Shown one piece after another: positions 4,141 to 29,785 of a stretch of DNA of 64,000 nucleotides; within the stretch, counting starts at the first letter, position 1; each line of letters begins with the position of its first letter. Source of the DNA: an uncultured Planctomycetia bacterium (GTDB lineage Bacteria > Omnitrophota > Gorgyraeia > CAYVEO01); the NCBI GenBank assembly GCA_964449965.1, contig CAYVEO010000006.1:308-64307 (forward strand), read 5' to 3'. The translations under genes were made by a program, and so were the position numbers. Under the pieces are notes generated by a model. The model ran no database searches and was not told the origin of the DNA. It saw only the letters and a list, made by a program, of their open reading frames with translations.

Positions 4141-4196
4141 TTCGGCTACGCCTCAGAATGACAATACAATAATGTCACTTTGAGCGTAGCGAAGAG
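4141..4196. repeat. imperfect inverted repeat (REP-like hairpin) CTTCGGCTACGCCTCAGAATGACA ... TGTCACTTTGAGCGTAGCGAAG
   Basis: About 20 of 24 positions pair. Lies between the tetraheme gene and ccsB; may act as a terminator or attenuator. Confidence 0.35.
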
Positions 4197-5298: not shown

Positions 5299-5320
5299 TA
5301 AAAAGGAGCGTGGCAATCTC

Positions 5321-6326: not shown

Positions 6327-6752
6327 ATGCCTCTTCAAGACAAATATGCCTACTTTTTACATATAAATGTGATGTTCGTTGTCCTTTCTCTTTTAAATTT
6401 AACTGTCGCGGGCTGCGAAAAGGGTCCAGGGTCTATAAAACTTATCATCCGTCACATAGAAAACAAGGATTTTGCAGAGGAGCATGTTGTGAAATTCGGG
6501 GAAGATTTTTTTATCTCAGATACAGACTATTCTGCTAAGGTGATTAAATTCATTCCGGACTTCGTGATGAATGAAAAAACAAAAAAGGTGTCTTCTCGTT
6601 CTAAGAAACCGAATAACCCTGCGGTCATGGTGAGGGTGTATTATAAGGGCAAGTTTTTGTATGACTCATGGGTATTGCAAAAGGCTGATACTATCCACTA
6701 TGTCCGAAAACCAGGTTTCTATTTTGAGTTTATTGGATTGGAGACTAAATGA
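6327..6752 (+). CDS. lipoprotein carrying a ResB-like periplasmic segment (ORF-track start 6291; start 6327 MPLQDKYAYF preferred)
   Basis: Lipobox LTVAGC. The segment KFIPDFVMNEKTKKVSSRSKKPNNPAVMVRVY parallels RYVPDFVIDIETKEAVTRTDEPNNPALQVEII of the ResB at 4180. Confidence 0.45.
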   Translation: MPLQDKYAYFLHINVMFVVLSLLNLTVAGCEKGPGSIKLIIRHIENKDFAEEHVVKFGEDFFISDTDYSAKVIKFIPDFVMNEKTKKVSSRSKKPNNPAVMVRVYYKGKFLYDSWVLQKADTIHYVRKPGFYFEFIGLETK

Positions 6753-9700: not shown

Positions 9701-9877
9701 TGCCATCCTACCCAGGGAACATTTGTCCATCCTGTGGGTGAAAAATATATAGACCCGAGGACAGGTTCTATGCTCACATGCCTCTCATGCCACAACCCGC
9801 ACGGGACAGAGAATGAATATGTCCTGTATTACAAGAAAGATAGGGAGTTGTGTATACAATGTCACAAGGTAGAGTAA
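6749..9877 (+). CDS. giant multiheme c-type cytochrome (about 42 CxxCH motifs in 1042 aa)
   Basis: Signal peptide. I counted 42 CxxCH motifs, arranged in a repeating unit of about 25 aa (K..C..CH.PH.S....LL) reminiscent of polymerised c7-type domains. Confidence 0.85.
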   Translation: MSCRKTLLITIAFSLIFAISSDDGFAARRAKKKECLECHAEKKPQLKEKFVHKPFSKKECLKCHETHGFTNALKLKKWDAELCFDCHSDKKGEFTKSHVHPAITKGRCWDCHDPHASSNPKLLVKTDSDLCYACHSKEKTEFAKENIHPLVKDGKCLTCHMPHSSENESQLRNTGNGNCTSCHETAKEEFVSAHAGYDAGKINCTDCHNPHSSSHKKLFKESVHVPVSEKKCDTCHDAVSSEEPLRLKIPGNRLCTICHLDKEKDLGKKHVHAPFSSGPCLDCHTPHASGNKDLLIKKEKDVCLSCHDTEKSQMKLAHTHTPFRDGECSSCHNPHASNEEKLLSDSADKLCFSCHKAEEERLKSSHTHKPFKEGECLSCHNPHASENNYQLIKVGKELCLKCHTVTEEKKKKYTHDPFQIGDCSSCHDSHASDFDGQLKKADGEVCYTCHKNEMEELSKKHPHTPAKEGKCLGCHKPHSSDERNLLTTSPDNLCYTCHSALVQKFTKKHIHKPVQEKDCLKCHNPHSGDNKFQVKKEGADLCFSCHAGIESQFKKESVHFPVKQGRCSTCHNSHASEEALLLNNPLSKLCSTCHVQDKKFQDAHLNFAVEAADCLGCHNPHASDAKKGLPNEYIHPPYEKKDCKTCHEEENGLAKTALKKDIARVCLSCHTSEKEIFTKDVVHTPFKEGKCPTCHNPHTSKNKSLMKDTGSQLCFNCHKDKLKEFSKGYAHTPVQEGKCTGCHQAHGSGDKALLTNTGAKLCYTCHKDFENRLNKPVVHNPVKKGECLTCHSPHVSDNPGGIRKPETELCLSCHDSSSGPFKSAHATYPVEKAKCVTCHDPHSSDSKGLFRSHLHAPVGEKKCNLCHAPAQGVKPFSLVKPEDELCYSCHGDKVQAFKKGHVHAPVASGGCTTCHAPHASDYKFLLEDTGGMQCFKCHTEAKKKFDAKYVHTPVAKGECTSCHNPHSTDFPNLTMKESIELCNSCHPTQGTFVHPVGEKYIDPRTGSMLTCLSCHNPHGTENEYVLYYKKDRELCIQCHKVE

Positions 9878-11328
9878 TAAAAGGCGGGTTAAAACTAAAA
9901 TTAATATTGTCTGTATGTATTACTATTGCCTTCCTGATAGGTTTGCTCACATATCTTATAGTCCACATCCAGACTGATGCCATGCTGAAAAAAACCAGGA
10001 ATTCCAATCGTATGATGAGCCAGATGTTCTATCAGCATCTGGAACTTGCGATGCTCACAGGCAAAAGAGAAGAGATCCAAAGGTTATTGCAGGATGTTGG
10101 CAAATATGAAGGTATCAGAGCCATCAAGATATTTGATGAAACAGGCAGGATAGTATTTTGTTCAAATCCCCAGTTTATCGGACAGAAGATAGACTTTCAT
10201 CACATGGATATATTTAAAGAAGAAAATATACATAGGACACTTGATTTTACGGAAAGTCATGATGAGTTCCACCTCGTTACACCTATCAGGAACAAAAGGG
10301 AATGTCAGAGATGCCATGGTGTTGAAAAAGAATTCATGGGGGCATTGGACCTGGATATATCATTGGCATCTATGATAAAAGATGTTGCCACGAACAGAAA
10401 CGTTATGATTTCATTTGCAATACTGACAATACTTGTTGTATCATTAGTAATATCCCTCTTTACTATGAAATTCGTCAGCCGTCCCATAACGCATCTCATA
10501 GGCACAATGCAGGAGGTAGAAAAAGGTAATTTAAACAAACGGGTAAATCTGGCAACCAACGATGAATTGGGCATGTTAGGTGAAAGTTTTAATTCAATGA
10601 TATCTAAGTTAGATGAGGCAAAAAAAGAACTGCAAGTCCTGCACGAGAGCGAACTCGCGAGGGCAGACAGATTAGCTTCTATAGGAGAACTTGCCTCTGG
10701 TATAGCCCATGAGATAAAGAATCCATTAGCAGGAATAGGTGCTGCCATTCAAGTTCTATCTGAAGGTGTCGCAAAAGATGACCCCCAAAAAGAGGTGCTG
10801 GATGAGATAATAAAGCAGATAGAAAGACTGAACAAGACGATAAAGGATTTCTTGGCTTATGCCAGACCGACTGAGCCCCGTATGGCAATATACGACATAA
10901 CTGATGTTGCGAAAAAGGCGGCCTTCTTGATAAGGAAACAGGCAGAAAACCAGAAGGTTGCAATAGAAGAGAATTATAAATACAATATCCCGGGATTACT
11001 GATAGACCCGGAACAGGTCCAGCAGGTTATGGTAAATATCATGCTCAACGCGGTTCAGGCGATGCCTGAGGGGGGCAGGTTAATAATATCAGCGAAGGCT
11101 GAACCTAAATTCGCAGAACTCTCCATCACCGATACAGGCAAAGGTATTCCAAAAGATAATCTTGCTAAAATCTTTACACCATTTTATACTACAAAACATC
11201 AAGGGACCGGATTAGGGCTCTCTATCAGTAACAGGATTATAGAGAAGCATAATGGGAGTATAAGGGTGGAGAGTGAGGTAGGGAAAGGCACTACATTCAG
11301 GATTAGGCTGCCAATAAAAGATGTCTAA
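9850..11328 (+). CDS. sensor histidine kinase with periplasmic heme-c (CxxCH) sensor domain
   Basis: Two TM helices flank a periplasmic domain of about 165 aa containing CQRCH. HAMP region, HisKA H-box (ELASGIAHEIKNPL) and HATPase_c motifs (DTGKGI, GTGLGL). Confidence 0.8.
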   Translation: MYTMSQGRVIKGGLKLKLILSVCITIAFLIGLLTYLIVHIQTDAMLKKTRNSNRMMSQMFYQHLELAMLTGKREEIQRLLQDVGKYEGIRAIKIFDETGRIVFCSNPQFIGQKIDFHHMDIFKEENIHRTLDFTESHDEFHLVTPIRNKRECQRCHGVEKEFMGALDLDISLASMIKDVATNRNVMISFAILTILVVSLVISLFTMKFVSRPITHLIGTMQEVEKGNLNKRVNLATNDELGMLGESFNSMISKLDEAKKELQVLHESELARADRLASIGELASGIAHEIKNPLAGIGAAIQVLSEGVAKDDPQKEVLDEIIKQIERLNKTIKDFLAYARPTEPRMAIYDITDVAKKAAFLIRKQAENQKVAIEENYKYNIPGLLIDPEQVQQVMVNIMLNAVQAMPEGGRLIISAKAEPKFAELSITDTGKGIPKDNLAKIFTPFYTTKHQGTGLGLSISNRIIEKHNGSIRVESEVGKGTTFRIRLPIKDV

Positions 11329-12706
11329 ATTTAAAATCCTTGTCGTAGATGATGAAAAACTGGTAAGGTGGTCATTAGAACATGCCCTTACCATGGAGGG
11401 GTATGCCGTATCCACTGCTGAGACAGGTGAGGAGGCAATCCATAAGATTAAGGGTGAGTCTCCTGACCTCATCCTGCTTGATGTAAAACTTCCTGGTGGA
11501 ATTGACGGTATCGCAGTATTGGCAAAACTCAGGGAATTTGATAAAGAGGCGATAGCGATTATGCTCACAGCCCATGATACAGCAGAGGCTGCAGTCCGTG
11601 CATTGAAATTAGGGGCGTATGAATATATATGCAAACCTTTTAATCTTGATGAATTGAAGATTATTATCAAAAATGCCTTTGAAACGGTAAGCTTACGGCG
11701 GCAGGTGGCGATTATCCGCTCAAGACAGGAAGCAGAGTTTGGATTTGACAACATTATTGGAAAGAGCCCGGCAATGCATGAGGTATTCACTATGATTAAA
11801 AAGGTATCAGAGACTGATACTACGACAATCCTCCTCTTGGGTGAAAGCGGAACCGGGAAGGACCTGGTTGCAAGGACGATTCATTATTCTGGCTCAAGAA
11901 AAGACAGCCCTTTTCTTGAGGTAAATTGTGCCGCACTTCCGGAGAACCTTCTGGAGAGTGAGTTGTTAGGATACGAAAAAGGAGCCTTCACCGATGCCAA
12001 GTCACAGAAGAAGGGCATGTTTGAATTAGCAGACGGAGGTTCTATATTTCTTGACGAGATAGGCGATATGAAGTTATCAATGCAGGTAAAACTCTTGAAG
12101 GTGATTGAGGATAAAAGATTCAAAAGGATTGGTGGGACGAGCGATGTAGAGGTTGACGTCCGGATTATCGCTGCCAGTAACAGGGACTTAGCAAAGGCTG
12201 TTAAAGAAGAGAAGTTCAGGGAAGACCTTTACTACAGGTTGAATATAGTGCCCATTACCATTCCGCCGCTGCGGGAACGAAAAGAGGATATCCCTCTATT
12301 AATAAAATTCTTCATTGATAAATTTAATAGTGAGTTCAAAAAGGATGTTAAAGGTATATCAAAAAAAGCTGAGGAACTACTTCTCAACTACGCATGGCCC
12401 GGAAACGTGAGAGAGATAAAGAACGTCATAGAACGGGCAATGATTTTAGAGAACATTGGAATTATATCAGACAGTCATCTGCCTATAGAGATAGGGGGTT
12501 ACGAATCAGTTCCTGTTAAAGAAATAAAGGGTTTGTTTAAAATACCTCTTCAGGGAATTGATATGGAAGAGGTTGAAAAAGAATTAGTCCGGCAGGCATT
12601 GGACATGGCGGTCGGGAATCAGACCAGGGCAGCAAAACTTCTCAACATTAAAAGAGATGCGCTCAGATACAAGATGCAAAAATTCGGATTTCTTGCAGAA
12701 AAGTAG
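11321..12706 (+). CDS. sigma-54-dependent response regulator (NtrC family)
   Basis: REC domain (ILVVDDE...LLDVKLPG). AAA+ sigma-54 activator domain (GESGTGKD, GAFTDA, ESELFGYEKGAFT). C-terminal Fis-type HTH. Confidence 0.9.
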   Translation: MSKFKILVVDDEKLVRWSLEHALTMEGYAVSTAETGEEAIHKIKGESPDLILLDVKLPGGIDGIAVLAKLREFDKEAIAIMLTAHDTAEAAVRALKLGAYEYICKPFNLDELKIIIKNAFETVSLRRQVAIIRSRQEAEFGFDNIIGKSPAMHEVFTMIKKVSETDTTTILLLGESGTGKDLVARTIHYSGSRKDSPFLEVNCAALPENLLESELLGYEKGAFTDAKSQKKGMFELADGGSIFLDEIGDMKLSMQVKLLKVIEDKRFKRIGGTSDVEVDVRIIAASNRDLAKAVKEEKFREDLYYRLNIVPITIPPLRERKEDIPLLIKFFIDKFNSEFKKDVKGISKKAEELLLNYAWPGNVREIKNVIERAMILENIGIISDSHLPIEIGGYESVPVKEIKGLFKIPLQGIDMEEVEKELVRQALDMAVGNQTRAAKLLNIKRDALRYKMQKFGFLAEK

Positions 12707-12824: not shown

Positions 12825-13751
12825 ATGCCTCTTCAAGGCAAATATGCCTCCTACTTAATTATAATATTACTGTACGCTTTCCCTGGTTTTTGTGAAGAGG
12901 TTAACCCAGCCAAATTCATATTCAGTATTGAGAGAGAGGCAAGCGAGGCATTAGAGAAACCAAAAGAAATATTTATAGACGTAGAGCATAGAGAAATCTA
13001 CGTGATAGACAATAAGGGAAAGGTAAGGCTCCAGGTATTTAATCTGGAAGGCTCATTTCTATACGACTTAGATATAGGGACAAAATTTAGCCTTATATCC
13101 GGTATTGGGGTATCAAAATCCGGCAGGATTTACATATCAGTCCCCGCTGCAAAAGAGGTGACAATCCTTGATTTTCGCGGGAAATTTATCAATAAACTGG
13201 ATTTCTCCGATATTCCTGAAACAAAAGAACTTCTCCCCGGGAAACTAACCCTTGATGCGGATGGAAACCTGTATTGCATTGACCACAAGAATCAACAGGT
13301 TCTGGTATTTGATGATAGGGATGGTTTCAAATTTAAATTCGGGTCAAAGGGAAATGATGACGGTAAATTTCAAAATATTTCAGACATAACGGTTTCTCAC
13401 AGCAATATATTTGTCTTAGATGCTTATCTGGGACGCATCTCAGTCTTTGATAAGGAAGGGAAGTTCCTGTTAAAATTCGGGCAAAAGGGCAGCGGTGTAG
13501 GCAAGATGAGCCAGCCATCAGGAATTGCCGTAGATAAGGACGGGAATATTTTTATAGCAGATAGTTTCAGGCACAATGTTCTTGTATTTAATAAGGATTA
13601 TAACCTGTGGTTTGAATTTGGTGGATTAGGAACAGGAACTAACTGGTTTATAAATCCTTCTGAGATAGCCATTGACGAAACGGGACGTATCTATGTAGTT
13701 GACTGGGGCAATGGCCGTATACAGGTATTTGAAATTGAGAAACCAAAATAA
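12825..13751 (+). CDS. secreted NHL-repeat beta-propeller protein (ORF-track start 12657 rejected)
   Basis: Signal peptide YLIIILLYAFPGFC followed by six repeats of the Y.[VA]D..N.R[IV]..F type. It is the gene immediately downstream of the sigma-54 regulator. Confidence 0.75.
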   Translation: MPLQGKYASYLIIILLYAFPGFCEEVNPAKFIFSIEREASEALEKPKEIFIDVEHREIYVIDNKGKVRLQVFNLEGSFLYDLDIGTKFSLISGIGVSKSGRIYISVPAAKEVTILDFRGKFINKLDFSDIPETKELLPGKLTLDADGNLYCIDHKNQQVLVFDDRDGFKFKFGSKGNDDGKFQNISDITVSHSNIFVLDAYLGRISVFDKEGKFLLKFGQKGSGVGKMSQPSGIAVDKDGNIFIADSFRHNVLVFNKDYNLWFEFGGLGTGTNWFINPSEIAIDETGRIYVVDWGNGRIQVFEIEKPK

Positions 13752-13817: not shown

Positions 13818-14120
13818 ATGAAAAAACTTCCTGGGTTCCTAAAAAAATATTTTTGGGATGTAGAATTTAAAAAAATAGACCCGAATAAAACTAAGATATA
13901 CGTTCTGAGGCGAATTCTTGATTATGGAGATGAGAAAGCAGTTACCTGGATGTACAAGAATTTTAAAAAATCAGAGATAAAAAATGCCTTGTCTAATTTT
14001 CGTGGCTATTCTCAAAAAAGTGCTAATTACTGGGCTCTTATATTAGATATACCAAAGGAAGAGGTATTATGTTTGAAGAAACGCTCATTAAGGGAGCGAA
14101 GGATATTCTGGCCTTATTAG
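13818..14120 (+). CDS. small hypothetical protein, possible cognate partner (antitoxin-like) of the downstream nucleotidyltransferase
   Basis: 100 aa basic protein overlapping the start of the next gene. No recognisable motif. Confidence 0.3.
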   Translation: MKKLPGFLKKYFWDVEFKKIDPNKTKIYVLRRILDYGDEKAVTWMYKNFKKSEIKNALSNFRGYSQKSANYWALILDIPKEEVLCLKKRSLRERRIFWPY

Positions 14121-14692
14121 GTCGTTCAAATATCTTAAAAGATGCATATTTGGCAGGTGGTACGGCAGCAGCCCTCCAATTAGGACACCGTATTTCTGTA
14201 GATTTTGACTTTTTTACTTCTAAGGAATTTGTGCCCAGAGTTTTTTCTACTGAACTATCAAAATTGGGTTCCTTTGACGAGGAACAGGCAGACAAAGGGA
14301 CCGTCTTAGGGGAATTTAAGGGGATAAAATTCAGCCTTTTTATCTATAAATACCCCTTAATTTTTCCTCCTAAAAAATATTTGTCATTGAATATAGCCGA
14401 TATTAGAGACATTGCCGCAATGAAAATAGACGCTATAGCAACTCGTGGGGCAAAGAGGGATTTTATTGATTCGTATTTTATATGTAAAGATGGTTACGGA
14501 TTAGATGAAATATTGGGGTTTTACAATAAAAAATACGGGAAATTGGTTTCTAATCTTATTCATCTTCAGAAAAGTTTAGTATATTTTAATGATGCTGAAC
14601 CAGAGATAATGCCAAAGATGTTAAAGAAAGTGAAGTGGGAAGAAATAAAAAAATATTTTGAGAACGAAGTAAAGAGATTGACAAGAGAATAA
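14069..14692 (+). CDS. nucleotidyltransferase of the AbiEii/DUF1814 toxin-like family
   Basis: LAGGTAAALQLGHRISVDFDFF ... DIRDIAAMKIDAIATRGAKRDFIDSYFI matches the minimal nucleotidyltransferase fold of AbiEii-type type IV toxins. Confidence 0.55.
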   Translation: MFEETLIKGAKDILALLGRSNILKDAYLAGGTAAALQLGHRISVDFDFFTSKEFVPRVFSTELSKLGSFDEEQADKGTVLGEFKGIKFSLFIYKYPLIFPPKKYLSLNIADIRDIAAMKIDAIATRGAKRDFIDSYFICKDGYGLDEILGFYNKKYGKLVSNLIHLQKSLVYFNDAEPEIMPKMLKKVKWEEIKKYFENEVKRLTRE

Positions 14693-14912
14693 GAAAAATT
14701 ACGCAAGAGTGCGTGAAATGCCGCAAGACATATCTTTAATAATTACAAAGTATTACGCTATTTTCCATGAGTTTTTGGATTAAACTGTGAATAATTTCGC
14801 AACCTGCATGATTTAAAACCTTCCTTAATGGGACGTCTCCCAAAAATATTTCCATATATAACCATATAATCCACATTGGGTTACATAAACACATTCCTTA
14901 AAATTATAGATT

Positions 14913-14928
14913 TGGCACGGAAATTGCT
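14913..14928 (+). promoter_or_regulatory. sigma-54 promoter TGGCACGGAAATTGCT (perfect -24/-12 consensus)
   Basis: TGGCAC-N5-TTGC with GG and GC 12 nt apart. The predicted start (about 14939) lies 2 nt before the ATG at 14941, giving an essentially leaderless transcript. Confidence 0.6.
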
Positions 14929-14940
14929 AATAATATAGGT

Positions 14941-15318
14941 ATGGTTGAAAAATATAGAATCCTGATAGTAGATGATGACAAATTAGTCAGGTGGTCTTTG
15001 ATAGAGGTTTTAAATAAAAATGGCTACGAGGCTACTTCTACTGAAACAGGAGAAGAGGCTATTAATAAGATTGAAGATGTAAAGTTTGATTTGGTTATAA
15101 CTGATTTGAGACTACCCGGGATAGGCGGATTTGAGGTCTTAAACAGGGTAAAAGAAATCAATCCATCTACAAAGGTAATCATGATTACTGCTTATGGCAG
15201 TGAAGGTGTAGCAAATGAGGCAAGGGAAAAGGGAGCCGAACTATTCGTGAATAAGCCTTTTGAGATAAATAGGATTAGAGAAGAGGTAAAGGAGATATTA
15301 TTAAAGGGAGGGGATTAG
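14941..15318 (+). CDS. single-domain response regulator (CheY-like receiver)
   Basis: 125 aa with RILIVDDD and the phospho-acceptor region DLVITDLRLPG. No output domain. Confidence 0.85.
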   Translation: MVEKYRILIVDDDKLVRWSLIEVLNKNGYEATSTETGEEAINKIEDVKFDLVITDLRLPGIGGFEVLNRVKEINPSTKVIMITAYGSEGVANEAREKGAELFVNKPFEINRIREEVKEILLKGGD

Positions 15319-15376
15319 AATGTGTAAGACTAAAGATATAAGGATTAAAAAAATAAGAGAGAAAGGAGGGATAGAG

Positions 15377-16393
15377 ATGAAGGGGATAGCAAGATATATT
15401 CTGATAGTGATGGGTGTAATAGCACTGGCAATGATTCTACCAATGGATAGTGTCTATGCAGTTCATAAGGGGGCAGGCGGATTGGACTGTTCAGGATGCC
15501 ATACTATGCACAATAGCCAGCAGGGTTCAACAATGGGTGGCGGTCCAACAGGGAGACTTTTAAAGGCAGCCGATACAGAAGGGCTATGTCTCTCGTGTCA
15601 TGATACTGCAGGCTCTCAATATACCACATATCAGGCGACTGTTCCGGCAGTGAAAGGAACCCCGTCTGGTACACCTGCGGCAGGAAATTTCACGGATTTA
15701 GACGGGACGAATGATGCCGCAGGGCAGACAGCCAAGGGTAAAGGGCATAACTTAGGTGAGGGGGCAGCTACATTAACTCCTCCGGGTGGAGCATCAATGA
15801 CTGGCTTTACCTGCACAAATTGCCACGACCCGCATGGTGTATCTACCGACAGTACTTCAGTTTCTGCATTCAGAAATCTGAGATTTAATCCAACTGGCTC
15901 AGGTGGTGGTGGACCATCAGTAATCAATGCAGGTCCTGCTGAAGGGACATTGGCAAGTGCAGTATATCCTGAGACGACTTACTATTATGGAAAGGTAACT
16001 GGTGGAGCCGCACTGAGTAATATATCCCAGTGGTGCGGGACATGCCATGATTCATTCTATGGCGATTCCAATACTGGTACAGCATCGCCTTATACACGTC
16101 ATGCGACCGGGAATCCTACAACGGCTCATAATTTGAGCGCTGTTGACTATACAAATTACTCTGGTGTAACAGAGGCAAGCAGGTTCCCTGCTGAAGATAG
16201 TGCTACAAGTGCAACTGCCAATAGTAGTAATACTACCAATAAGGCGGCAGGAAATGAGTCTGCTGATGGAGTTTTATGCTTATCATGCCATAAGGCACAT
16301 GCTACGGCTAATACTGATAGCTTGAGGTGGAGTTATGCAGCTGCGGCACAGTCCTCACCAGGCAGCGCTTGCCAGCAGTGTCATAACAAGTAA
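15377..16393 (+). CDS. hexaheme c-type cytochrome, Gly/Thr/Ser-rich (start at 15377 with a GGAGG RBS preferred over 15320)
   Basis: Signal anchor. Six CxxCH motifs (CSGCH, CLSCH, CTNCH, CGTCH, CLSCH, CQQCH). Low-complexity G/T/S-rich linkers. Confidence 0.75.
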   Translation: MKGIARYILIVMGVIALAMILPMDSVYAVHKGAGGLDCSGCHTMHNSQQGSTMGGGPTGRLLKAADTEGLCLSCHDTAGSQYTTYQATVPAVKGTPSGTPAAGNFTDLDGTNDAAGQTAKGKGHNLGEGAATLTPPGGASMTGFTCTNCHDPHGVSTDSTSVSAFRNLRFNPTGSGGGGPSVINAGPAEGTLASAVYPETTYYYGKVTGGAALSNISQWCGTCHDSFYGDSNTGTASPYTRHATGNPTTAHNLSAVDYTNYSGVTEASRFPAEDSATSATANSSNTTNKAAGNESADGVLCLSCHKAHATANTDSLRWSYAAAAQSSPGSACQQCHNK

Positions 16394-16522
16394 GTGAGAC
16401 GCAGGAAGGTAGTGAATTACCTTCTGAAGGTAACAAAAGGGTGTCAGTAGGTTTTCTACCTTTGACACCCTTTTTTCTTGCTTGACTTTGGGAGCAGAAT
16501 ATGCTAATTTGTATATAACATT

Positions 16523-17431
16523 ATGATGCTGCCTATAGTTATATTGTTTATTCTGACCAGGCAATTAGTTGCAGTTGCAGATGATACGCCTAAATTAAAA
16601 TATCTATATTCTATAAGTGAGTTAACTAAAAGCGAGGGCATATCAGAACCCCAGTCAATATTTATTGATAAACTGCATGATGAGATATATATAAGTGATA
16701 CAGGGAATAACCGTATTCTTGTATTTAACAAGGATGGATTACTAATTCAGAAGATTGATGGAGCAAAAAATATAATCTCACCTCTGGGGATAGCTGTTGA
16801 CGTTAAATTAGGTAACATCTACGTTAGCGAAAGAGAAAGCGGAAAATTAAAAGTCTTAAATTTTAGGGGTGAAGGAATCTTAGATATAGATCTTTCTAAA
16901 TTAGGCAGAAGTAGTATATCAATTGGCAGGCTCACACTTGATAAGTCGGGGAATTTATACGCTATTGATGGTATGAATCAGGAAATTCTTTCTTTTGACA
17001 TGTCAGGAAATTTCAGATTTAGATTTGGCGGCATCGGAACTAAAGAAGGACAATTTGAGATGTTACAGGATATAGGGATAGATGAAGACGGCAGGGTCTA
17101 TGCAGTCAGTTCCTTGGGGACTTCTGTTCAGGTATTTGACCGTGACGGCAGATACCTATCTGGTTTTGGTAAACATGGGGCTGATGAAGCAAAACTATCA
17201 TTTCCAGCAGGTATAGGGATAGACAGAAATAATAGACTTTGGCTTACTGACAGTTTCCAGCATTCTTTAAAGGTATTTGACCATAACGGGAAGTTTCTCT
17301 TTAAATGGGGAAATATGGGGAGCGGGAATGGTGACTTTTTATTCCCGGTAGACATTGATTTTGATAGTAAGGGGAATATCTATGTCCTGGAAAAAGGGAA
17401 TAGTCGTGTTCAAGTATTTGAGGAACAATGA
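16523..17431 (+). CDS. secreted NHL-repeat beta-propeller protein
   Basis: Signal peptide. Six NHL-type repeats (YISDTGNNRILVFN, YVSERESGKLKVLNF, LYAIDGMNQEILSFD, VYAVSSLGTSVQVFD, LWLTDSFQHSLKVFD, IYVLEKGNSRVQVFE). Confidence 0.8.
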   Translation: MMLPIVILFILTRQLVAVADDTPKLKYLYSISELTKSEGISEPQSIFIDKLHDEIYISDTGNNRILVFNKDGLLIQKIDGAKNIISPLGIAVDVKLGNIYVSERESGKLKVLNFRGEGILDIDLSKLGRSSISIGRLTLDKSGNLYAIDGMNQEILSFDMSGNFRFRFGGIGTKEGQFEMLQDIGIDEDGRVYAVSSLGTSVQVFDRDGRYLSGFGKHGADEAKLSFPAGIGIDRNNRLWLTDSFQHSLKVFDHNGKFLFKWGNMGSGNGDFLFPVDIDFDSKGNIYVLEKGNSRVQVFEEQ

Positions 17432-18356
17432 AATTCTTCCTGCAATTCTTGCAATCATTGTGTGGTCTGTTGCTGTCCCTGTTTCAGCAGGAGACTATCA
17501 CACTGTAGGCACTTCAAGTCTTATATGTTCGGACTGCCACACTATTCACTACACCCAGTTAGGGACAAGATATGAGGCAGGTGGACCATGGCCAAGGTTA
17601 CTGTTATATTCTGCTATAACAGGATTATGTCTATCCTGCCATGATGGGCAGACATCCATCCCTGATGTCCTGCAGGCAGCGGGTGCAGGCCAGCCTGCTA
17701 ACAGGGCTGCAGGTGCATTTCAGGCATTGTCCGGAAACTCTACGCCTAACGGTCATAATTTAGGTGTGGCAGGGACGCCTCCCGGAGGGACAGGCTCAAT
17801 GACTCTTACATGCACATCCTGTCATGACCCGCATGGTACTACTAATTACAGGAATCTTAAAACAAGCGTTGGCAGTGGTGGGGCAGCAATTACGTATTCT
17901 GCAGGTGGTTCTAATGACCTTGCTAAATGGGTGTGGGAGATTGCAACGACGCCGATGGCAACACACTATGATGTGAGCAATATAAGGTATAATGAACCCG
18001 TTACAACTGACTCCACATTCAGCGGGTGGTGTGGAGGCTGCCATGGGGATTTTCATGGACTCGTAAACACAGGCGACCCTGAACCATGGACCAGACACCC
18101 TACGGCAAAGGCAAATGTCTCTGCAACTACAAAAACCGATTATACTAACTGGAGCGGGATTACAGGCTCACGTGTTCCTGTAATGAGTGCAAGCGGGACT
18201 GTCCCTGCAACTGATAACACACCCTCGTGTCCATCGTGCCATAAGGCACATGGGTCAGGAAACAAATACGGACTTATATTTGATAATCCGTCAACTGCGT
18301 CATTAGAGGATGGGACGAGCATATTACAGACATGCCAGCAGTGTCATAATCAATAA
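17355..18356 (+). CDS. hexaheme c-type cytochrome, paralog of the 15377 gene
   Basis: Six CxxCH motifs (CSDCH, CLSCH, CTSCH, CGGCH, CPSCH, CQQCH). Same architecture and G/T/S-rich linkers as 15377-16393. The true start may be M10 at 17382. Confidence 0.7.
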   Translation: MILIVRGISMSWKKGIVVFKYLRNNEILPAILAIIVWSVAVPVSAGDYHTVGTSSLICSDCHTIHYTQLGTRYEAGGPWPRLLLYSAITGLCLSCHDGQTSIPDVLQAAGAGQPANRAAGAFQALSGNSTPNGHNLGVAGTPPGGTGSMTLTCTSCHDPHGTTNYRNLKTSVGSGGAAITYSAGGSNDLAKWVWEIATTPMATHYDVSNIRYNEPVTTDSTFSGWCGGCHGDFHGLVNTGDPEPWTRHPTAKANVSATTKTDYTNWSGITGSRVPVMSASGTVPATDNTPSCPSCHKAHGSGNKYGLIFDNPSTASLEDGTSILQTCQQCHNQ

Positions 18357-18364
18357 GGGGTTAT

Positions 18365-20014
18365 ATGAAAAAAATACTAATATCCACAGGAATATTGGTG
18401 CTCGTAATATCCCTTGCATTCTATCTCAAGAATGTGCTTGGCAGCGGTGGGTCATTCACCAAGACTGAACATGGCGGGACCGATGTAAATAGTAATTCAA
18501 CTACAGGTGTATATCGTTCTTCAGTAGATAAAACTGCTACAGGACATCCTGCAGCGGCAGGCGAATGTGTCCACTGCCACGAGCAGCATGCCAGCGTAGA
18601 GGGGACAGAACCTGTTCCTACAGGCGGTCCGGATGATTATCTGTTAATGCGTGCCAATGATAATAATCTATGCTATGAGTGTCATACCGGCAGTCTGAAC
18701 AGAATCTGGCCGGGTTCAGGCGCGTTGAATTATGACGGGTCAGGACATGGAAGTACAACCGCATTGTATAACAGCAGGGATGTTAAATTGTGTGTCCAGT
18801 GCCATAACCCGCACGGGGCCATTGATACAGATTACAGTGCCACAAATCCATCCCCGAGAATGACGAGATACATTGAAGAGAAGACCTGCCTGTCTAATAG
18901 CGGTGTCGCAGGTTCAGGGTGCCATGGAAGTTCAGGTAACCCTACAGGCGCAAAAAATATATATTCACTTTTCTATTCCAAAACATACAGGCACCCGCTT
19001 TCTCCTGCATTGGACGCTGTAAAAGGCAAGACAGGCGTGCATAGTTCGTTAGAATCCCAGTCAGCATATCCTACAGGGACTGCCTTTTATGGCGCTAACC
19101 GGCACGTGGAATGTGTTGACTGCCATAATCCTCACATGGCGAGAAATAATGGGACTGCCGGCAATAGTACCCATACGGCGACAGGCGCCGCATATCCTGC
19201 CCCGACTAACATTGCATCAAGGGCACTCTTAGGCACATGGGGTGTAGCGCCGACATACGGAGGGACTGCATGGGTAGCGCCTACCAGTTGGACTGTGCGG
19301 AATTTTACAACCGTGGATGATACAGCCAACAAAGAACATCAACTTTGTTTTAAATGTCATTCATCTTTTGCCTACGGCGGGACGCCGCCGACAGGTTATA
19401 CAGACCAGTCCATTGAATTTAACCCGAATAACAAGTCCTTTCACCCGGTCTATCAGGCATTTAATGTAGCCCCTCTGCATACCAATTCCTATACTACGCC
19501 TTCTGCTAATAATGGAAACATACAAACGATGGCAGCCCCGTTTAATACAACCAGCCCAAAGACGATGTATTGCAGTGACTGCCATGGGAGCGAGACTGAT
19601 GCAGACCCCGAGGGTCCGCATGGGTCAAATAATCAGTATATCATAATACGTTCCACGTCTGCTACAGATAATACATTATGTCTGAAGTGTCATCTAAGTA
19701 CTGTTTATACCCCGGCAAGCGCCCCTGGGTCGGGAACTGAGACAGGGACTAGATTTGACCAGCAGACAACAGGTGATGGTAGTGCAAATCATTATAACCA
19801 TGCAGTAAGCCGTGGTAAGTTCTGCCGGGACTGCCATGCAGGGACACAAATAGCGGCAGTGGGTAACAACCCTGCGGCATTAGCACCAGGGTCTGTTCAT
19901 GGAACAAACCTGGCTACAGGTTTTATGAACGGTGTAAATATAAATGTTTATTCAGCAGGCAGTTGTGACCCAGCCTGCCATGCCACTAAGACATACACTG
20001 CAGGCGTAGAATGA
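18365..20014 (+). CDS. multiheme c-type cytochrome (8 CxxCH plus one CX3CH-type CDPACH)
   Basis: Signal anchor. Motifs CVHCH, CYECH, CVQCH, CVDCH, CFKCH, CSDCH, CLKCH, CRDCH and an atypical CDPACH near the C-terminus. Confidence 0.75.
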   Translation: MKKILISTGILVLVISLAFYLKNVLGSGGSFTKTEHGGTDVNSNSTTGVYRSSVDKTATGHPAAAGECVHCHEQHASVEGTEPVPTGGPDDYLLMRANDNNLCYECHTGSLNRIWPGSGALNYDGSGHGSTTALYNSRDVKLCVQCHNPHGAIDTDYSATNPSPRMTRYIEEKTCLSNSGVAGSGCHGSSGNPTGAKNIYSLFYSKTYRHPLSPALDAVKGKTGVHSSLESQSAYPTGTAFYGANRHVECVDCHNPHMARNNGTAGNSTHTATGAAYPAPTNIASRALLGTWGVAPTYGGTAWVAPTSWTVRNFTTVDDTANKEHQLCFKCHSSFAYGGTPPTGYTDQSIEFNPNNKSFHPVYQAFNVAPLHTNSYTTPSANNGNIQTMAAPFNTTSPKTMYCSDCHGSETDADPEGPHGSNNQYIIIRSTSATDNTLCLKCHLSTVYTPASAPGSGTETGTRFDQQTTGDGSANHYNHAVSRGKFCRDCHAGTQIAAVGNNPAALAPGSVHGTNLATGFMNGVNINVYSAGSCDPACHATKTYTAGVE

Positions 20015-20835
20015 GATGGCTGCTCACAGGTCTTATCTTTGCAGGATTAGTCTGGGGGACAGTCTTTTTGGTCTTTCGCCAGTTAAAGCATCCAAAGAGA
20101 CTGAGGGGTTGGCTGATTACAGGGTTTCATGTATCTCTGGCTTTAGGTTTTTTGTTTCTCATATTAAGTAAACTGTTCAGGTTTGATGGAGAAATTGTTC
20201 TGGCTGAAGGACAGACTTTAAGGGAGGTTCATTCCGATTATATTTTTACACATGAGGGTCCGCTTTTTAAAGAGAATCACAAGGGTTTTTCATTGAGGTT
20301 AGATAAATTAGAATTAAGGCGTCCTCAGGGCATAGAAGAATATGTGAGCCATGTTACCTTACAATCAGGAAACAATAGTCCCATAAAAGCAGACGTGAGA
20401 GTCAATCACCCGTATAAATTTGAAGGGTTTTATATATATCATTTCAGGCAGGGTTTTTCTCCGTCTCTACTCATTAAAGATGCAGAGGGCAAAATTTTAT
20501 TGAATTCATTTGTGAATCTAAGCATAGTGAAGGATGAAAAAAACAGGGAAATCTCTCAGGATGAGGTGCGGTTAAGTAGTGAACGTCTTAACTTAAACTT
20601 GAAGTATTTCCCGGATAAAAAGAATTTACATATAGCTATTAAAGAGCATGAAGAATCCTCAAGTGAAGAAGTTATGGCACTCGGGGAGACCAGAAAGATA
20701 GGCGATTATAATCTCACCTTTAAGGAACTCAGGCGATGGAGCGGTCTCCGCTTGGTAAAAGACCCGTATCTTAATATGGTGTACTTCGGCTTTGTCTTAG
20801 GGATTATCTTTTTAGCAGGGATTATACTGATATGA
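20011..20835 (+). CDS. ResB/Ccs1-like cytochrome c biogenesis protein, second short copy
   Basis: N-terminal TM pair, periplasmic domain and C-terminal TM. Positioned directly upstream of a second ccsA, mirroring the 4180-6301 arrangement. Confidence 0.55.
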   Translation: MRWLLTGLIFAGLVWGTVFLVFRQLKHPKRLRGWLITGFHVSLALGFLFLILSKLFRFDGEIVLAEGQTLREVHSDYIFTHEGPLFKENHKGFSLRLDKLELRRPQGIEEYVSHVTLQSGNNSPIKADVRVNHPYKFEGFYIYHFRQGFSPSLLIKDAEGKILLNSFVNLSIVKDEKNREISQDEVRLSSERLNLNLKYFPDKKNLHIAIKEHEESSSEEVMALGETRKIGDYNLTFKELRRWSGLRLVKDPYLNMVYFGFVLGIIFLAGIILI

Positions 20836-21605
20836 AGTTAGAGTTTTTACTTATCTGGCTCACCATTCTCTTATATGCAATTGCTGCATTCGGGTATTTA
20901 GTGAGCGTTGTATTTGATAAGAAAAAAAGAATGGATATTTTAACATGGTCAGGCTGGCTCATCCATACATTTGCGATTATATGGCGTTGGTTCCGTATTG
21001 GCCATCCGCCATTTTTAAGTTTATTTGAATTGGTATCCTTAGGTGCATGGTTGACAATCCTGATATTTTTACTATTCAGTATAAGGCAGAGTAAAGGACG
21101 GGTATTAGGAGCAATAGTCCTGCCCTGGACATTTATATCTTTGGGCGTAGTCCTAAATACCCCAACTGCACCGGTTCCGTTAAATCCGGCGTTAAAGAGT
21201 TTCTGGCTATATATCCATATCGGGTTTGCTTTATTTACATACGGCTCTTATATCCTTTCAGCATCAGCGGCTGTCCTGTATCTGACAAAAAGAATGGAAG
21301 AGATGGATAAACTAAGTTATCGCTTTATACTCTTAGGTTTTTTGACACACGCCATCATGATAGTATCCGGTGCTGTCTGGGCAAATTTGGCATGGGGCAG
21401 ATACTGGGCATGGGACCCTATTGAGACATGGTCACTTCTTACGTGGATTTTATACGGGGGGTATCTACACTTAAGGTTAATTAAAGGGTGGAGAGGGAAA
21501 AGGTGTGCATGGATTTCCATTATCTCTTTGATTTTAATCATAATCTGTTTCTGGGGTGTGCCGGTCTTTTCCAGGACAATCCATGCTTTTGGAAAATTTT
21601 TTTAA
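20832..21605 (+). CDS. ccsA: CcsA-type cytochrome c biogenesis protein, second copy
   Basis: The WANLAWGRYWAWDPIETWSLLTWILYGGYLHLR Trp-rich signature. Polytopic. Confidence 0.8.
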   Translation: MKLEFLLIWLTILLYAIAAFGYLVSVVFDKKKRMDILTWSGWLIHTFAIIWRWFRIGHPPFLSLFELVSLGAWLTILIFLLFSIRQSKGRVLGAIVLPWTFISLGVVLNTPTAPVPLNPALKSFWLYIHIGFALFTYGSYILSASAAVLYLTKRMEEMDKLSYRFILLGFLTHAIMIVSGAVWANLAWGRYWAWDPIETWSLLTWILYGGYLHLRLIKGWRGKRCAWISIISLILIIICFWGVPVFSRTIHAFGKFF

Positions 21606-21608: not shown

Positions 21609-22607
21609 ATGTTAAACTTACTTAATAATTATCTCCATGATTTATCATCCGCCTGCTGGTTTGTTACAGTCATAGTGGTATGGTTTTTATATCAGGAAAT
21701 TTCAAAAGAAGGCAGTGAGACTGCCTATAAAATATGGCAAAGGTTTTTTGGCAAGGCAAATATTTTATTCTGGGTAAGTCTGGTTTTAGTGCTTGTGACA
21801 GGTGTCCTCCGTGCTTTAACCTACCAGAGATTAGAATGGGTAGATAGTTTAGGGACAAAACAGGTTTACCTCTTAATCATAAAGCATATTTTTTTCGCAA
21901 TCATGGTGTTTAGCGGTATCTTCATCTGGCATAGATTAGCAAGGAGAATGCAAATCAAATCCTCAGTTCTAATCTGGCTCGGTATAACACTGCTCCTTTT
22001 AATGGTATCCTTTAATATCGGCTGGAAGGTAACTGAAAATAATATGAAGACCCGCAGTAAATTAGTCCTTTTCCATGCCATGCCTTTGAGTTATTTCTAC
22101 CATGGAGAGACTGGTAAGAATCTGGAGGAATTAAGTTATAAGCGGACAGAAGGTAGATATGGGTGGAGTATCCCTTGCAATAATTGCCAGTTTGACGGGA
22201 AGAAGGGATTTGTTGAAGATTGTGAGGTAGGGAACTTCTGTTTAATACCTTTTGAAGGAATAGAGGTTTTGCTCTGGGTTGGTATGGATTTTTATGGTGA
22301 CCAGTATAAAGTGACAATAGACCCTGGCGGAAAAAATGAATTAGACGCAGGGTTGATTAATACCTGTGCAAATGCTGAATTAAAAGAGGTCTATCAATCA
22401 GGCAGAGAGCCGATGAAAAGAATTATTGACCCAAATAAACCGTTAGAGAGGTTTACTCAGGGAGAAAGATACATTCAGGCTTTTAAACTCTGCTCCGGTC
22501 TGAAGCCAGGCAAACACATACTCCGACTTGAACATATATGGAGAGAAGAACTTGATTCTGGAGGCCCTGATTTTAACCACCTTTATGCTGTGGAGATAAG
22601 AAGATGA
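21609..22607 (+). CDS. membrane protein of unknown function (about 4 N-terminal TM helices plus a Cys-containing periplasmic domain)
   Basis: Hydrophobic N-terminal 150 aa. C-terminal soluble domain with CNNCQ...C..C spacing. No family recognised. Confidence 0.4.
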   Translation: MLNLLNNYLHDLSSACWFVTVIVVWFLYQEISKEGSETAYKIWQRFFGKANILFWVSLVLVLVTGVLRALTYQRLEWVDSLGTKQVYLLIIKHIFFAIMVFSGIFIWHRLARRMQIKSSVLIWLGITLLLLMVSFNIGWKVTENNMKTRSKLVLFHAMPLSYFYHGETGKNLEELSYKRTEGRYGWSIPCNNCQFDGKKGFVEDCEVGNFCLIPFEGIEVLLWVGMDFYGDQYKVTIDPGGKNELDAGLINTCANAELKEVYQSGREPMKRIIDPNKPLERFTQGERYIQAFKLCSGLKPGKHILRLEHIWREELDSGGPDFNHLYAVEIRR

Positions 22608-23329
22608 AAAAAATCATAATCGGGTTTTCTCTGGTTGGGATGAGTATTTTATGGACATCTACATGGGGTGAGTCTGAAAAAGAGGCGTCAGCAAAACTGG
22701 AAGAGATGATTCATGTGCCGGCAGGTAAATTTATCATGGGTGCGAACGATGGTGAAGATGATGAAAAGCCCATGCACGATGTTTCTTTAAAAGGATTTTA
22801 CATAGATAAGTATGAGGTCACAAATGGCCAGTATAAGAAATTTAAACCGGACCATACCTTCCCTGCGGGGAGGGAAGATTTTCCTGTAGTGAACGTTTCG
22901 TGGTATGATGCAAATGAATATGCCAAATGGGCGGGTAAGCGTCTGCCTGCACAGGCGGAATGGGAAAAGGCTTCAAGAGGGACAGACGGCAGAAAATGGC
23001 CATGGGGAAATGTATGGGACAAGAATAAGTGTAATACCAGTGACAGTGAAATATGGGATTCTCTAAAAGTTGGAAGTTATCCGCAAGGGGTATCACCTTA
23101 TGGCTGCTATGATATGGCAGGCAATGTATGGGAATGGACATACGAAGACTATGAGCCATATCCAGGCAATACTATAAAAAATTCACATTATGGAGAAGGA
23201 CAAAAGGTAATGAAAGGCGGTTCATGGTTTGGATATGGCGACCATGGGGCACGGTGCAGCGACAGATACATAAGCATGCCTTATGTTAAGGATGAGATGA
23301 TAGGGTTCAGGTGCGCGAAAGATGAATAA
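22604..23329 (+). CDS. secreted FGE-sulfatase (SUMF1/formylglycine-generating-enzyme-like) domain protein
   Basis: Signal peptide. Segments KGFYIDKYEVTNGQYKKF, NVSWYDANEYAKWAGKRLP, YDMAGNVWEWT and MKGGSWFGYGDHGARCSDR are characteristic of the FGE-sulfatase fold. Confidence 0.7.
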   Translation: MKKIIIGFSLVGMSILWTSTWGESEKEASAKLEEMIHVPAGKFIMGANDGEDDEKPMHDVSLKGFYIDKYEVTNGQYKKFKPDHTFPAGREDFPVVNVSWYDANEYAKWAGKRLPAQAEWEKASRGTDGRKWPWGNVWDKNKCNTSDSEIWDSLKVGSYPQGVSPYGCYDMAGNVWEWTYEDYEPYPGNTIKNSHYGEGQKVMKGGSWFGYGDHGARCSDRYISMPYVKDEMIGFRCAKDE

Positions 23330-24794
23330 ACGGGTCCTTCTGATAACGCCGCCGTACCACTGCGGGGTTGTAGAATCTGCAGGAAGGTGGCCTAACTTAG
23401 CATTCATTTACATTGCAGGAGAGTTACGCAAGGCAGGTTTTGAGGTGGCTATATACGATGCCATGTCAAAGTTTACAGGATATGACGAGATTGAGACTGA
23501 GATATATGAGTTCAAGCCGGATTTTGTAGGGTCAACTGCTATTACTGCTACTCTCTATGCCGCCGTAGAGGTGCTGAAAAGGGCAAAGAGGATTAACAAT
23601 AAAATTATTACCCTTTTAGGAGGGGTCCACCCAACATTCATGTGGGAGGAGGTTCTTAGAGATTATCATGAGGATGTTGATTTCTGCATATTAGGTGAAG
23701 GTGAGAGGACAATCCCTGAGTTACTCGGCACTATTCTAAAAGAAGGAGATGTATCAAAGATAAAGGGGGTAGCTTACTGGGAAAAAGAAAGAGCAGTCAG
23801 TACCCAGCCGAGGGAATTTATTCAAGACCTTGATTCAATAGACGGGGCATGGGACATTGTGGACTGGAGTGATTATCCATTATATTTCATTGACAATTCT
23901 CACGTCTCCATTGTAAGTTCCTCAAGGGGGTGTATTCATGAGTGCGCCTTCTGTTCCCAGCATAAATTCTGGCAGGGAAGTTACAGGGAAAGAAATCCAT
24001 TTCAGTTTACAGATGAGATAGAATATATCCATAAAAGATTCGGCGTTAACGTATTCTTTATAGCAGATGAATATCCGACGAGAAACAGGGAACGCTGGCT
24101 AAAAATACTTGACACATTGATTGAAAGGAATCTGGGCATATACATCCTGTTAGAGACATGCGTTGAGGATATAATACGTGACAGTGATATCCTGTGGAAA
24201 TACAGGGCGGCAGGCGTTCTCTTCATATACGTCGGGGTGGAGGCTACGAGTCAGAAAAGGCTTGACCTGTTCAAAAAAGAGCTCAAGTTTGAACAGTCCA
24301 GGGAGGCAATAAGATTAATTAAAGATGCAGGAATGATATGCGAGAGTTCGCTTATACTTGGTATGCCTGATGAGACTAAGGAGACAATTGCCGAGACCTT
24401 ACAGCTTGCTAAGATATACGATTCTGACTATATGCACTTTTTAATGATAGCCCCGTGGCCCTATGCAAATATATACAAGGACCTTGAGCCTTTTATTGAG
24501 ATAAAGGATTATTCTAAGTATAACTTAGTATACCCCATAATAAAACCAAAGGGAATGGTCCGGGATGATGTCCTGAAAGAGGTCCTAACCTGTTATAAGA
24601 GTTATTATATGGATAAATTGCCGTCGTGGTATTGGATGACTGGCAATGACCTGAAACGCGATTGTTTGTTAAAGGGCATGAAGGCTATTGTGGAGAACTC
24701 ATTCCTGAAAGACCACATGAAAGGATTAGGCAGTATGCCGGAGGAATTGAGGAAATATATTATAACAGCAAAGACAGAAGAGGTGTACTTTTAA
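23322..24794 (+). CDS. B12-binding-domain radical SAM protein
   Basis: N-terminal Rossmann-like B12-binding region (LLITPP..., LLGGVHPT). CIHECAFC (CX3CX2C) radical SAM cluster motif. Confidence 0.8.
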   Translation: MNKRVLLITPPYHCGVVESAGRWPNLAFIYIAGELRKAGFEVAIYDAMSKFTGYDEIETEIYEFKPDFVGSTAITATLYAAVEVLKRAKRINNKIITLLGGVHPTFMWEEVLRDYHEDVDFCILGEGERTIPELLGTILKEGDVSKIKGVAYWEKERAVSTQPREFIQDLDSIDGAWDIVDWSDYPLYFIDNSHVSIVSSSRGCIHECAFCSQHKFWQGSYRERNPFQFTDEIEYIHKRFGVNVFFIADEYPTRNRERWLKILDTLIERNLGIYILLETCVEDIIRDSDILWKYRAAGVLFIYVGVEATSQKRLDLFKKELKFEQSREAIRLIKDAGMICESSLILGMPDETKETIAETLQLAKIYDSDYMHFLMIAPWPYANIYKDLEPFIEIKDYSKYNLVYPIIKPKGMVRDDVLKEVLTCYKSYYMDKLPSWYWMTGNDLKRDCLLKGMKAIVENSFLKDHMKGLGSMPEELRKYIITAKTEEVYF

Positions 24795-29291: not shown

Positions 29292-29298
29292 ATTATAA

Positions 29299-29784: not shown

Positions 29785-29785
29785 G

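Follow-up and report, generated by a model that had tools for sequence, protein, structure and literature searches.

Why do genes for NHL beta-propellers stand among multihaem cytochrome genes behind a sigma-54 promoter, and what could the propellers do there? The question is raised by a stretch of 64,000 nucleotides of contig CAYVEO010000006.1, from an uncultured bacterium (GenBank assembly GCA_964449965.1), which we call the window and whose positions are used throughout. A first-pass annotation had described, at 14913-20014, a cluster pairing two hexahaem cytochromes with an NHL propeller, and had proposed an unrecognised redox module in which propellers would bind a substrate or a mineral next to electron-transfer cytochromes. 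Our analysis favours another answer: the region is probably the core of a locus for extracellular electron transfer of the OmcS type, comparable to GSU2507-GSU2493 in Geobacter sulfurreducens, with sigma-54 two-component control and with NHL propellers as partners of the hexahaems.

OmcS-family hexahaems and their accessory genes

This answer starts from two paralogous cytochrome genes of the + strand, HEX1 and HEX2, whose products are 35% identical. HEX1 is encoded by the open reading frame (ORF) 15320-16393; its likely start is 15377, which is preceded by the ribosome-binding site AAGGAGG and gives a normal Sec signal peptide. HEX2 lies at about 17382..18356, with a start that is uncertain between 17355 and 17445; it overlaps the end of the upstream NHL gene (NHL2), and the same overlap is found in locus L003, which belongs to a close relative. 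Both proteins have six CXXCH motifs, signal peptides recognised by inspection and the size (300-450 residues, secreted) by which we delimit the family. HEX1 matches OmcS (PDB 6ef8/6nef) over residues 52-339 with a phmmer E of 7.4e-9. A search of 5.8 billion proteins with HEX1 gave 733 homologues, and the profile A1, made of 24 of them, matches OmcS 6ef8 with E 7.9e-35 over chain residues 2-350, plus the last haem motif. The same profile matches weakly (E 1e-5), by its N-terminal part only, PDB 7tfs, annotated as "Cytochrome c" and which we take to be the OmcE filament.

All 12 haem-ligand histidines are invariant in A1—the six of the CXXCH motifs and H30, H45, H124, H153, H242 and H308—which is the number needed for six bis-histidine haems. 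The second histidine of the motif C-x-x-C-H-T-M-H presumably corresponds to OmcS His16, the ligand of haem 5 in the neighbouring filament subunit. Besides, the predicted mature N-terminus of HEX1, V-H-K-G, resembles F-H-S-G of OmcS. By these sequence comparisons HEX1 and HEX2 are OmcS-family hexahaems, and it is plausible that they polymerise into filaments as OmcS does.

Scanning one genome per GTDB species with A1 yielded at least 79 loci, whose ORFs were searched with the proteins of the window. They are distributed among Nitrospirota, Thermodesulfobacteriota, Acidobacteriota, Krumholzibacteriota, Zixibacteria and Ignavibacteria, and are also found in Geomonas, Geobacter, Anaeromyxobacter and Ca. 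Methanoperedens. Genes for NHL proteins, for giant cytochromes of 26, 16 or 42 haems, for CsgG-like lipoproteins and for a protein of ~750 residues recur across the 79 loci listed. In the close relative (L003/L005), HEX1 is 78% identical and the gene order is retained from the receiver-domain (REC) gene which opens the cluster to a radical SAM gene; in L007, from a Nitrospirae metagenome-assembled genome (MAG), the order NHL1, HEX1, NHL2, HEX2, larger cytochrome is that of the window.

The accessory genes have counterparts in G. sulfurreducens, where omcS and its paralogues omcT and GSU2501 form, with the eight genes GSU2500-2493, the osc cluster; among its products are a prolyl-isomerase chaperone (OscH), the channel-like OscE, OscF and OscG, and a propeller, OscD (PMC13194489; bioRxiv 10.1101/2025.11.06.686851, citing Shen et al. 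2025). Between the hexahaems and the lipoproteins, most of our loci encode a protein of ~475 residues and one of ~750 residues. The latter family (alignment A4, loci L016-L075) contains a central F5/8-type-C (discoidin/CBM32-like) domain and shows weak matches to outer-membrane beta-barrels, porins and TonB receptors in its flanks; Pfam has no dedicated family for it. Its hidden Markov model (HMM) matches the product of 24797..27259 (+ strand) with E 1.3e-26, in two segments, residues 50-248 and 567-862 of the 869-residue stop-to-stop ORF, i.e. about residues 1-199 and 518-813 from the 24797 start. A six-bladed NHL propeller (residues ~195-470) stands between these segments. Since the match occurs on both sides of the propeller, we assign the 24797 protein as the putative outer-membrane component in OscE position, with NHL replacing the discoidin-like domain; this would be the fusion of NHL to an outer-membrane-like beta domain of the first-pass annotation. 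AlphaFold2 (AF2) gives the propeller 24 strands with a pLDDT (predicted local distance difference test) of 70-92 and leaves the flanks unresolved (pLDDT ~20). The protein has, by inspection, a signal peptide and a terminal Phe; searched at full length, it found mostly NHL-only matches and two full-length relatives only.

Two CsgG/LpoB-like lipoprotein genes (PF03783/PF13036) follow on the + strand at 27306-27893 and 27907-28713, in the OscF/OscG positions. They have homologues in most loci, among them proteins in the OscF and OscG positions of the Geomonas silvestris locus L048 (E 2e-12 for the OscG-position protein). Upstream of the hexahaems, the gene 6749..9877 (+ strand) encodes a cytochrome with 42 CXXCH, homologous to 42- and 26-haem proteins of the loci with E down to 5e-217. 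As pairs of 26- and 16-haem proteins are found in most loci, the 42-haem cytochrome is, from its sequence relatives, the fused equivalent of such a pair. In relatives an NHL gene follows the giant cytochromes; in the window the genes of a kinase and of an activator stand between the 42-haem gene and NHL1.

Several observations nevertheless weigh against an OmcS-type, nanowire-forming locus. We know it here from its genes. The Osc equivalences are drawn from positions in the Geomonas/Geobacter loci and from secondary citations, and the view that the 24797 protein is a barrel from the weak matches mentioned above. AF2 prediction of HEX1 from the 24-sequence alignment was unusable (pLDDT 42), so that the hexahaem fold identity is read from the sequence. 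No ORF of the window matches the SurA-like peptidyl-prolyl isomerase of L006, which is OscH-like and has matches in 36 ORFs of the related loci; an OscH-like gene could be located beyond the window. Nor did we find in the window a clear YncE-type OscD propeller (~475 residues): NHL1 and NHL2 match the HMM of the OscD-position family weakly and in part (E 3e-9), and the Geomonas member of this family is a propeller of the YncE/lactonase type, not NHL. Finally, what OmcS filaments do in the cell is a matter of dispute (PMC11077965). Because a prolyl isomerase was sought and not found, the locus is not filed as a full osc cluster; we file it as an osc variant that would work like the osc cluster.

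The main competing reading is that the hexahaems are not filament subunits but periplasmic or surface carriers, or part of a reductase, and that the NHL, CsgG-like and barrel genes make up a conduit of the porin-cytochrome type. Only OmcS itself among the OmcS paralogues is known to polymerise, which counts for a conduit and against filaments; the window contains more clusters of porin-like and cytochrome genes, and the 42-haem protein could form, with a ~10-haem cytochrome encoded next to HEX2, a chain across the envelope. The invariance of the 12 haem ligands, including the equivalent of the inter-subunit one, the OmcS-like mature N-terminus and accessory genes that match those tied to the secretion of OmcS nanowires argue in the other direction, and we hold a conduit to be rather unlikely. 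The OmcS-type locus remains the reading that we retain.

The sigma-54 promoter and its regulators

The sequence TGGCACGGAAATTGCT, annotated as a perfect sigma-54 promoter, withstands closer inspection. It occurs once in the window, at 14913..14928 on the + strand, where shuffled sequences lead to expect 0 copies, and it is the sole exact TGGCAC-N5-TTGC of the 64 kb; this -24/-12 element combines GG-N10-GC with the fuller consensus and lies upstream of a gene of the same strand. The start codon of the REC gene is located only 13 nt 3' of the site, so that the transcript would be nearly leaderless. In L003 the site reads TGGCATGGAAATTGC, with one change and an unchanged distance to the REC start, and the mean column identity of the intergenic region around the promoter is 89% between L003 and the window. 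Sigma-54-like sites placed 13-19 nt before the first start codon are found at 14913-14941 and 30998-31031 in the window, at 9600-9628 in L003 and at 4190-4222 in L022, which belongs to a distant deltaproteobacterial MAG; the short spacing is kept in the close relative and roughly in the distant one, and the transcripts would have leaders of a few nt at most. The order sigma-54 site, REC, hexahaem is also that of L003 and L022. More widely, 43 sigma-54-like sites of the + strand (at most one mismatch) are present in the 1.16 Mb of related loci, and 30 of them, 13 being exact, are at the start of a cluster gene, i.e. hexahaem, NHL or REC.

A separate observation concerns L080, a contig assigned to the archaeon Ca. 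Methanoperedens (MAG), which carries at 337-1506 an OmcS-family hexahaem-like gene with five CXXCH and, upstream, the sigma-54-like site TGGCATAAAAATTGC. The gene may have been transferred horizontally, or the contig may have been misbinned.

About 200 bp upstream of the promoter, at 14699..14717 (+ strand), we spotted by eye the palindrome TTACGCA-N4-TGCGTGA, kept in L003, which is a candidate, putative activator-binding site; the repeat tool reported no inverted repeat upstream of the promoter. The activator itself would be the product of 11321..12706 (+ strand), an NtrC-type sigma-54 enhancer-binding response regulator with a receiver domain (PF00072), an AAA+ core (PF00158, E 7e-70) and a Fis-type helix-turn-helix (HTH; PF02954). 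It is preceded on the same strand (9850..11328) by the gene of a sensor histidine kinase with two transmembrane helices, a periplasmic sCache domain, HAMP, HisKA and HATPase (Pfam). The sCache domain holds one CXXCH, probably a haem c site, and in nine loci, which belong to several phyla, a kinase gene with exactly one CXXCH adjoins that of the activator in the vicinity of OmcS-like genes. Orthologues of the 11321 activator (E <= 1e-100) adjoin OmcS-like genes in many loci, and many OmcS-like clusters are flanked by orthologous kinase/activator pairs. The sites on one hand and the kinase/activator pairs on the other indicate that sigma-54 two-component control, as noted at first for the window, recurs across phyla.

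The first gene of the cluster, 14941..15318 (+ strand), encodes a receiver-only response regulator (PF00072, E 9e-30), which shares 42% identity (BLASTP) with the receiver domain of the 11321 activator. No rpoN gene is present in the 64-kb window. We predict that transcription starts about 12 nt downstream of the 14913 site and depends on RpoN and on the 11321 activator. The kinase would sense the periplasmic redox state through its haem and phosphorylate the activator, which in turn would open the promoter; the REC-only protein would probably drain, buffer or compete for phosphoryl groups, hence providing a feedback.

Pfam and motif counts agree with the gene order given for the cluster: REC, hexahaem, NHL, paralogous hexahaem, larger cytochrome and CcsBA pair. 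Two of its limits have to be redrawn. The NHL gene at 12825 had been considered the sole target of the 11321 regulator, and no sigma-54-like site (two mismatches or fewer) exists between the two genes, so that this target status is not supported. The cluster had been closed at 20014; as no convincing terminator-like site is found downstream on the + strand until ~30869, it extends beyond that position.

NHL propellers as candidate partners of the hexahaems

The window encodes exactly three NHL propellers, and for each of them Pfam confirms the repeats announced by the first-pass annotation. NHL1 (12825..13751, + strand; PF01436, E 2e-20) is exported and occupies the position of GSU2505, the NHL gene of the omcS locus; NHL2 (16523..17431, + strand; PF01436, E 8e-24, and PF17170) is exported and six-bladed; the third is the one included in the 820-residue product of 24797-27259 (PF01436, E 1e-57). 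NHL1 and NHL2 are 36% identical, and an exact-sequence look-up of NHL2 gave no match. As a side observation, a 34-bp repeat with one difference, at 6318-6351 and 12816-12849 (0 expected by chance), spans the ribosome-binding site and first codons of both the lipoprotein gene 6291-6752 and NHL1.

The proximity of NHL and cytochrome genes had been called systematic, and our loci bear this out: NHL genes are enriched beside OmcS-like genes in the 79 loci, i.e. in many phyla. An NHL gene is found within 500 bp of a hexahaem gene in 37 of the 79 loci, and in 24 of the 48 whose flanks measure 2 kb or more on each side. Within 1 kb of the hexahaem block NHL genes reach a density of 3.2 per 10 kb, as opposed to 0-0.4 further out; they are 10-20 times denser next to OmcS-like genes than at a distance. 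On this distance profile we reject a chance co-localisation. Either a lack of co-conservation in relatives or a cytoplasmic location had been named as ruinous to the idea. The NHL genes are co-conserved and N-terminal signal peptides are present in the NHL homologues, so that we consider the linkage genuine.

What, then, is the propeller for? Having no haem motifs, the NHL propellers are not redox proteins. Their subtype varies with that of the neighbouring hexahaem: the NHL1 subtype precedes HEX1 and HEX2 types in a ratio of 15:1, the NHL2 subtype in a ratio of 5:8 (Fisher p = 0.003, uncorrected for phylogeny). This co-variation points to a protein-protein partnership. We infer, from sequence patterns, that the NHL propellers are exported proteins without a redox function which bind the hexahaems as cognate partners; their task would be to hold, escort, dock or space the cytochromes during export and assembly at the outer-membrane channel.

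A step further, the propellers could be dedicated and subtype-specific docking partners at the secretion and assembly channel, the 24797 protein being then a natural "Rosetta-stone" fusion that would reveal a physical contact between propeller, channel and cytochrome. We advance this tentatively and think it rather improbable. If true, it would offer a concrete mechanism for a class of propellers encoded beside extracellular cytochromes in many phyla, and would suggest that sigma-54 control by a haem-sensing kinase represents the ancestral regulation of OmcS-type wires.

The proposal of the first-pass annotation, that the NHL propellers bind a substrate or a mineral and bring a soluble or insoluble electron acceptor or donor to the cytochromes, is not supported by our data. 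Certainly NHL propellers are generic binding scaffolds, that of 24797 stands in for a discoidin/CBM32-like domain—typically ligand-binding, which would fit the binding of a surface—and its nearest relatives are domains of cell-surface proteins; on the other hand no binding site or ligand can be deduced, the same NHL families are found in organisms of very different lifestyles, and the co-variation of subtypes better fits a recognition between proteins. Moreover the Geobacter literature suggests that GSU2505 is needed for the assembly or the expression of OmcS, and does not tie it to the binding of a substrate. Binding of a substrate or mineral thus seems unlikely to us. That the propellers are enzymes of the lyase, lactonase or amidating-lyase type, modifying cytochromes or the envelope together with the FGE-sulfatase-domain and B12-radical SAM proteins encoded in the same putative operon, is very improbable, since their weak Pfam similarities to SGL/gluconolactonase, arylesterase and Vgb lyase are near or below the cut-offs and reflect the common propeller fold, and since the FGE and radical SAM genes are limited to the window's own lineage while the NHL linkage is general. 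A partnership with the hexahaems therefore remains our preferred role for the NHL propellers.

Surrounding genes and known systems

Downstream of HEX2, the gene 18365..20014 (+ strand) encodes a cytochrome of 549 residues. It had been annotated as an 8/9-haem protein: the eight CXXCH are indeed there, but the additional motifs are one CX10CH and one CX3CH. The CX10CH (CLSNSGVAGSGCH) occupies a place where relatives have a canonical CXXCH, and the CX3CH, conserved at the C-terminus, aligns to CX4CH in relatives. Homologues follow a hexahaem gene in L007, L020, L021, L026, L034, L069, L076 and L085; in terms of gene order the cytochrome is a conserved partner gene downstream of HEX2-type genes. 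It has no relative in PDB.

The CcsBA pair announced after this cytochrome is present as well, but its ResB-like member (20011..20835, + strand) is short, 274 residues, and covers only part of the Pfam model (PF05140, E 8e-18). The other member, 20832..21605 (+ strand), is of CcsA type (PF01578, E 2e-43; TIGR03144, score 189.5 for a cut-off of 187.6), so that the pair consists of the CcsA-type protein and ResB/CcsB partner that define System II. Such a pair directly 3' of a homologous cytochrome gene is found only in the window and in the close relative L005. CcsA1 is specialised for the CX15CH of MccA in Wolinella; likewise, the 20011-21605 pair may be a specialised haem lyase for the unusual haem motifs of the 18365 cytochrome.

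The rest of the window may be described more rapidly; it forms a long island of electron-transfer genes on a single strand. At its beginning, 194..4104 (+ strand) encodes cytochrome b/b6-like and PetD-like membrane proteins, then c-type cytochromes of 4, 5 and 4 haems (PF00033, PF00032, PF13435); as judged from these families, electrons probably enter the chain here by the oxidation of quinol. A first ResB/CcsA pair, of full size and also of System II, follows at 4180..6301 (+ strand; PF05140, E 1e-49; PF01578, E 9e-53). Between NHL1 and the promoter, 13818..14692 (+ strand) holds an inserted toxin-antitoxin-like pair, DUF6922 and AbiEii by Pfam. L003 has in the same spot (8837-9350) a different toxin-antitoxin pair, DUF6290/ParE, abutting the conserved promoter region; the pair of the window is not part of the system. 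The genes 21609..24794 (+ strand, Pfam) for a membrane protein, an FGE-sulfatase-domain protein and a B12-binding radical SAM protein are kept in L005; they are accessory genes specific to the lineage. After the CsgG-like lipoproteins, 28710..30529 (+ strand) encodes a small membrane protein and, from motif counts, a cytochrome with four CXXCH and one CX3-4CH and a 9-haem cytochrome.

Three further observations concern the distal part of the window. An orphan ORF, 30543-30857, encodes, of a sigma-54 activator, only the C-terminal lid and the Fis-type HTH, the AAA+ core being absent; it lies a little upstream of the sigma-54-like site at 30998 and could be the remnant of a gene or encode a small DNA-binding protein. 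Behind this site, the cluster 30963-36293 encodes a 459-residue protein of unknown family and cytochromes of 14 and 13 haems. Another cluster, 38492-48421, comprises a REC-only gene, a Cache kinase, a sigma-54 activator and a site with two mismatches at 42870, which is followed by genes for a porin-like protein of 436 residues, 12- and 3-haem proteins and a molybdopterin oxidoreductase.

From all these genes a path may be proposed. Electrons would pass from the cytochrome-b-type quinol oxidoreductase (194-4104) to giant periplasmic cytochromes and then to the OmcS-type hexahaems, which would be exported through an outer-membrane assembly made of the beta-rich protein and the CsgG-like lipoproteins. 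A long transcript would carry the two hexahaems, each behind its own NHL subtype, the ~10-haem cytochrome, the haem-lyase pair and the OscEFG-like parts; in the lineage of the window one propeller would be built directly into the outer-membrane component.

How does this locus compare with those already described? Upstream of omcS in G. sulfurreducens are a Cache/HAMP kinase (GSU2507), a sigma-54 regulator (GSU2506) and an NHL protein (GSU2505). The order of the window—kinase 9850, activator 11321, NHL1 12825, hexahaem—is that of GSU2507-2506-2505-omcS, and the 9850 kinase is of the same domain type as GSU2507. The OmcS and OmcE nanowire clusters are described as regularly including beta-propeller proteins and large barrels; Portela et al. 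2024 contains nothing on osc or NHL. With the omcS/osc region the window shares hexahaem paralogues, a giant cytochrome of the 26/16-haem type, a ~750-residue beta-rich protein, CsgG/LpoB-like lipoproteins and NHL proteins. It differs by the fusion of the 26- and 16-haem proteins into one of 42 haems, and by an NHL propeller where a discoidin-like domain is expected in the OscE-position protein. To these are added the REC-only gene, the private ResB-like/CcsA pair and the FGE and radical SAM genes. The hosts differ as well, the window belonging probably to Omnitrophota, the taxon given by cluster mates named Candidatus Omnitrophota, and osc to Desulfuromonadia.

Other systems resemble it more distantly. 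In the OmcE clusters of Desulfuromonadia (bioRxiv 10.1101/2025.10.22.684050), a nanowire cytochrome is accompanied by two multihaem cytochromes, two beta-propeller lipoproteins and a large beta-barrel, with resB/ccsB nearby: the pattern of components is alike, but OmcE, the subunit there, is tetrahaem and its sequence bears no relation to that of OmcS. The Uet cluster of Ca. Tenderia electrophaga and Gallionella (bioRxiv 10.1101/2022.05.06.490989; PMC9900912), where the NHL-repeat proteins UetH/I are encoded beside multihaem cytochromes, has in common with the window, as far as descriptions can be compared, two NHL proteins, multihaem cytochromes, a beta-barrel and a cluster-internal CcsA/CcsB pair. 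Its own features are undecahaem and trihaem cytochromes, a cupredoxin, a prolyl isomerase and a proposed function in electron uptake, and no OmcS-type hexahaem is described in it. In D. ferrophilus IS5, the NHL-repeat proteins DFE_0451 and DFE_0463 are encoded among the multihaem cytochrome genes of DFE_0448-0465 (PMC9769857); compared by description too, the mixture of NHL and cytochromes is alike while the cytochrome families differ.

Since the association of NHL proteins with cytochromes is thus known in Geobacter, in Uet and in D. ferrophilus, and since the window encodes OmcS homologues in the gene order of the omcS locus, the module cannot be called unrecognised, and the window reveals no new kind of redox module. 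It rather extends the OmcS-type locus, with sigma-54 regulation and NHL partners, to a probable Omnitrophota genome; the comparison loci place the same type of locus in many other phyla and provide evidence for a pairing of NHL subtypes with those of the hexahaems. With regard to the systems just compared, what is particular to the window is the swap of NHL for a discoidin-like domain, the 42-haem fusion, a REC-only first gene on a near-leaderless transcript and a CX10CH motif beside a private haem-lyase pair. The domain swap in particular could guide the work on GSU2505 and OscE.

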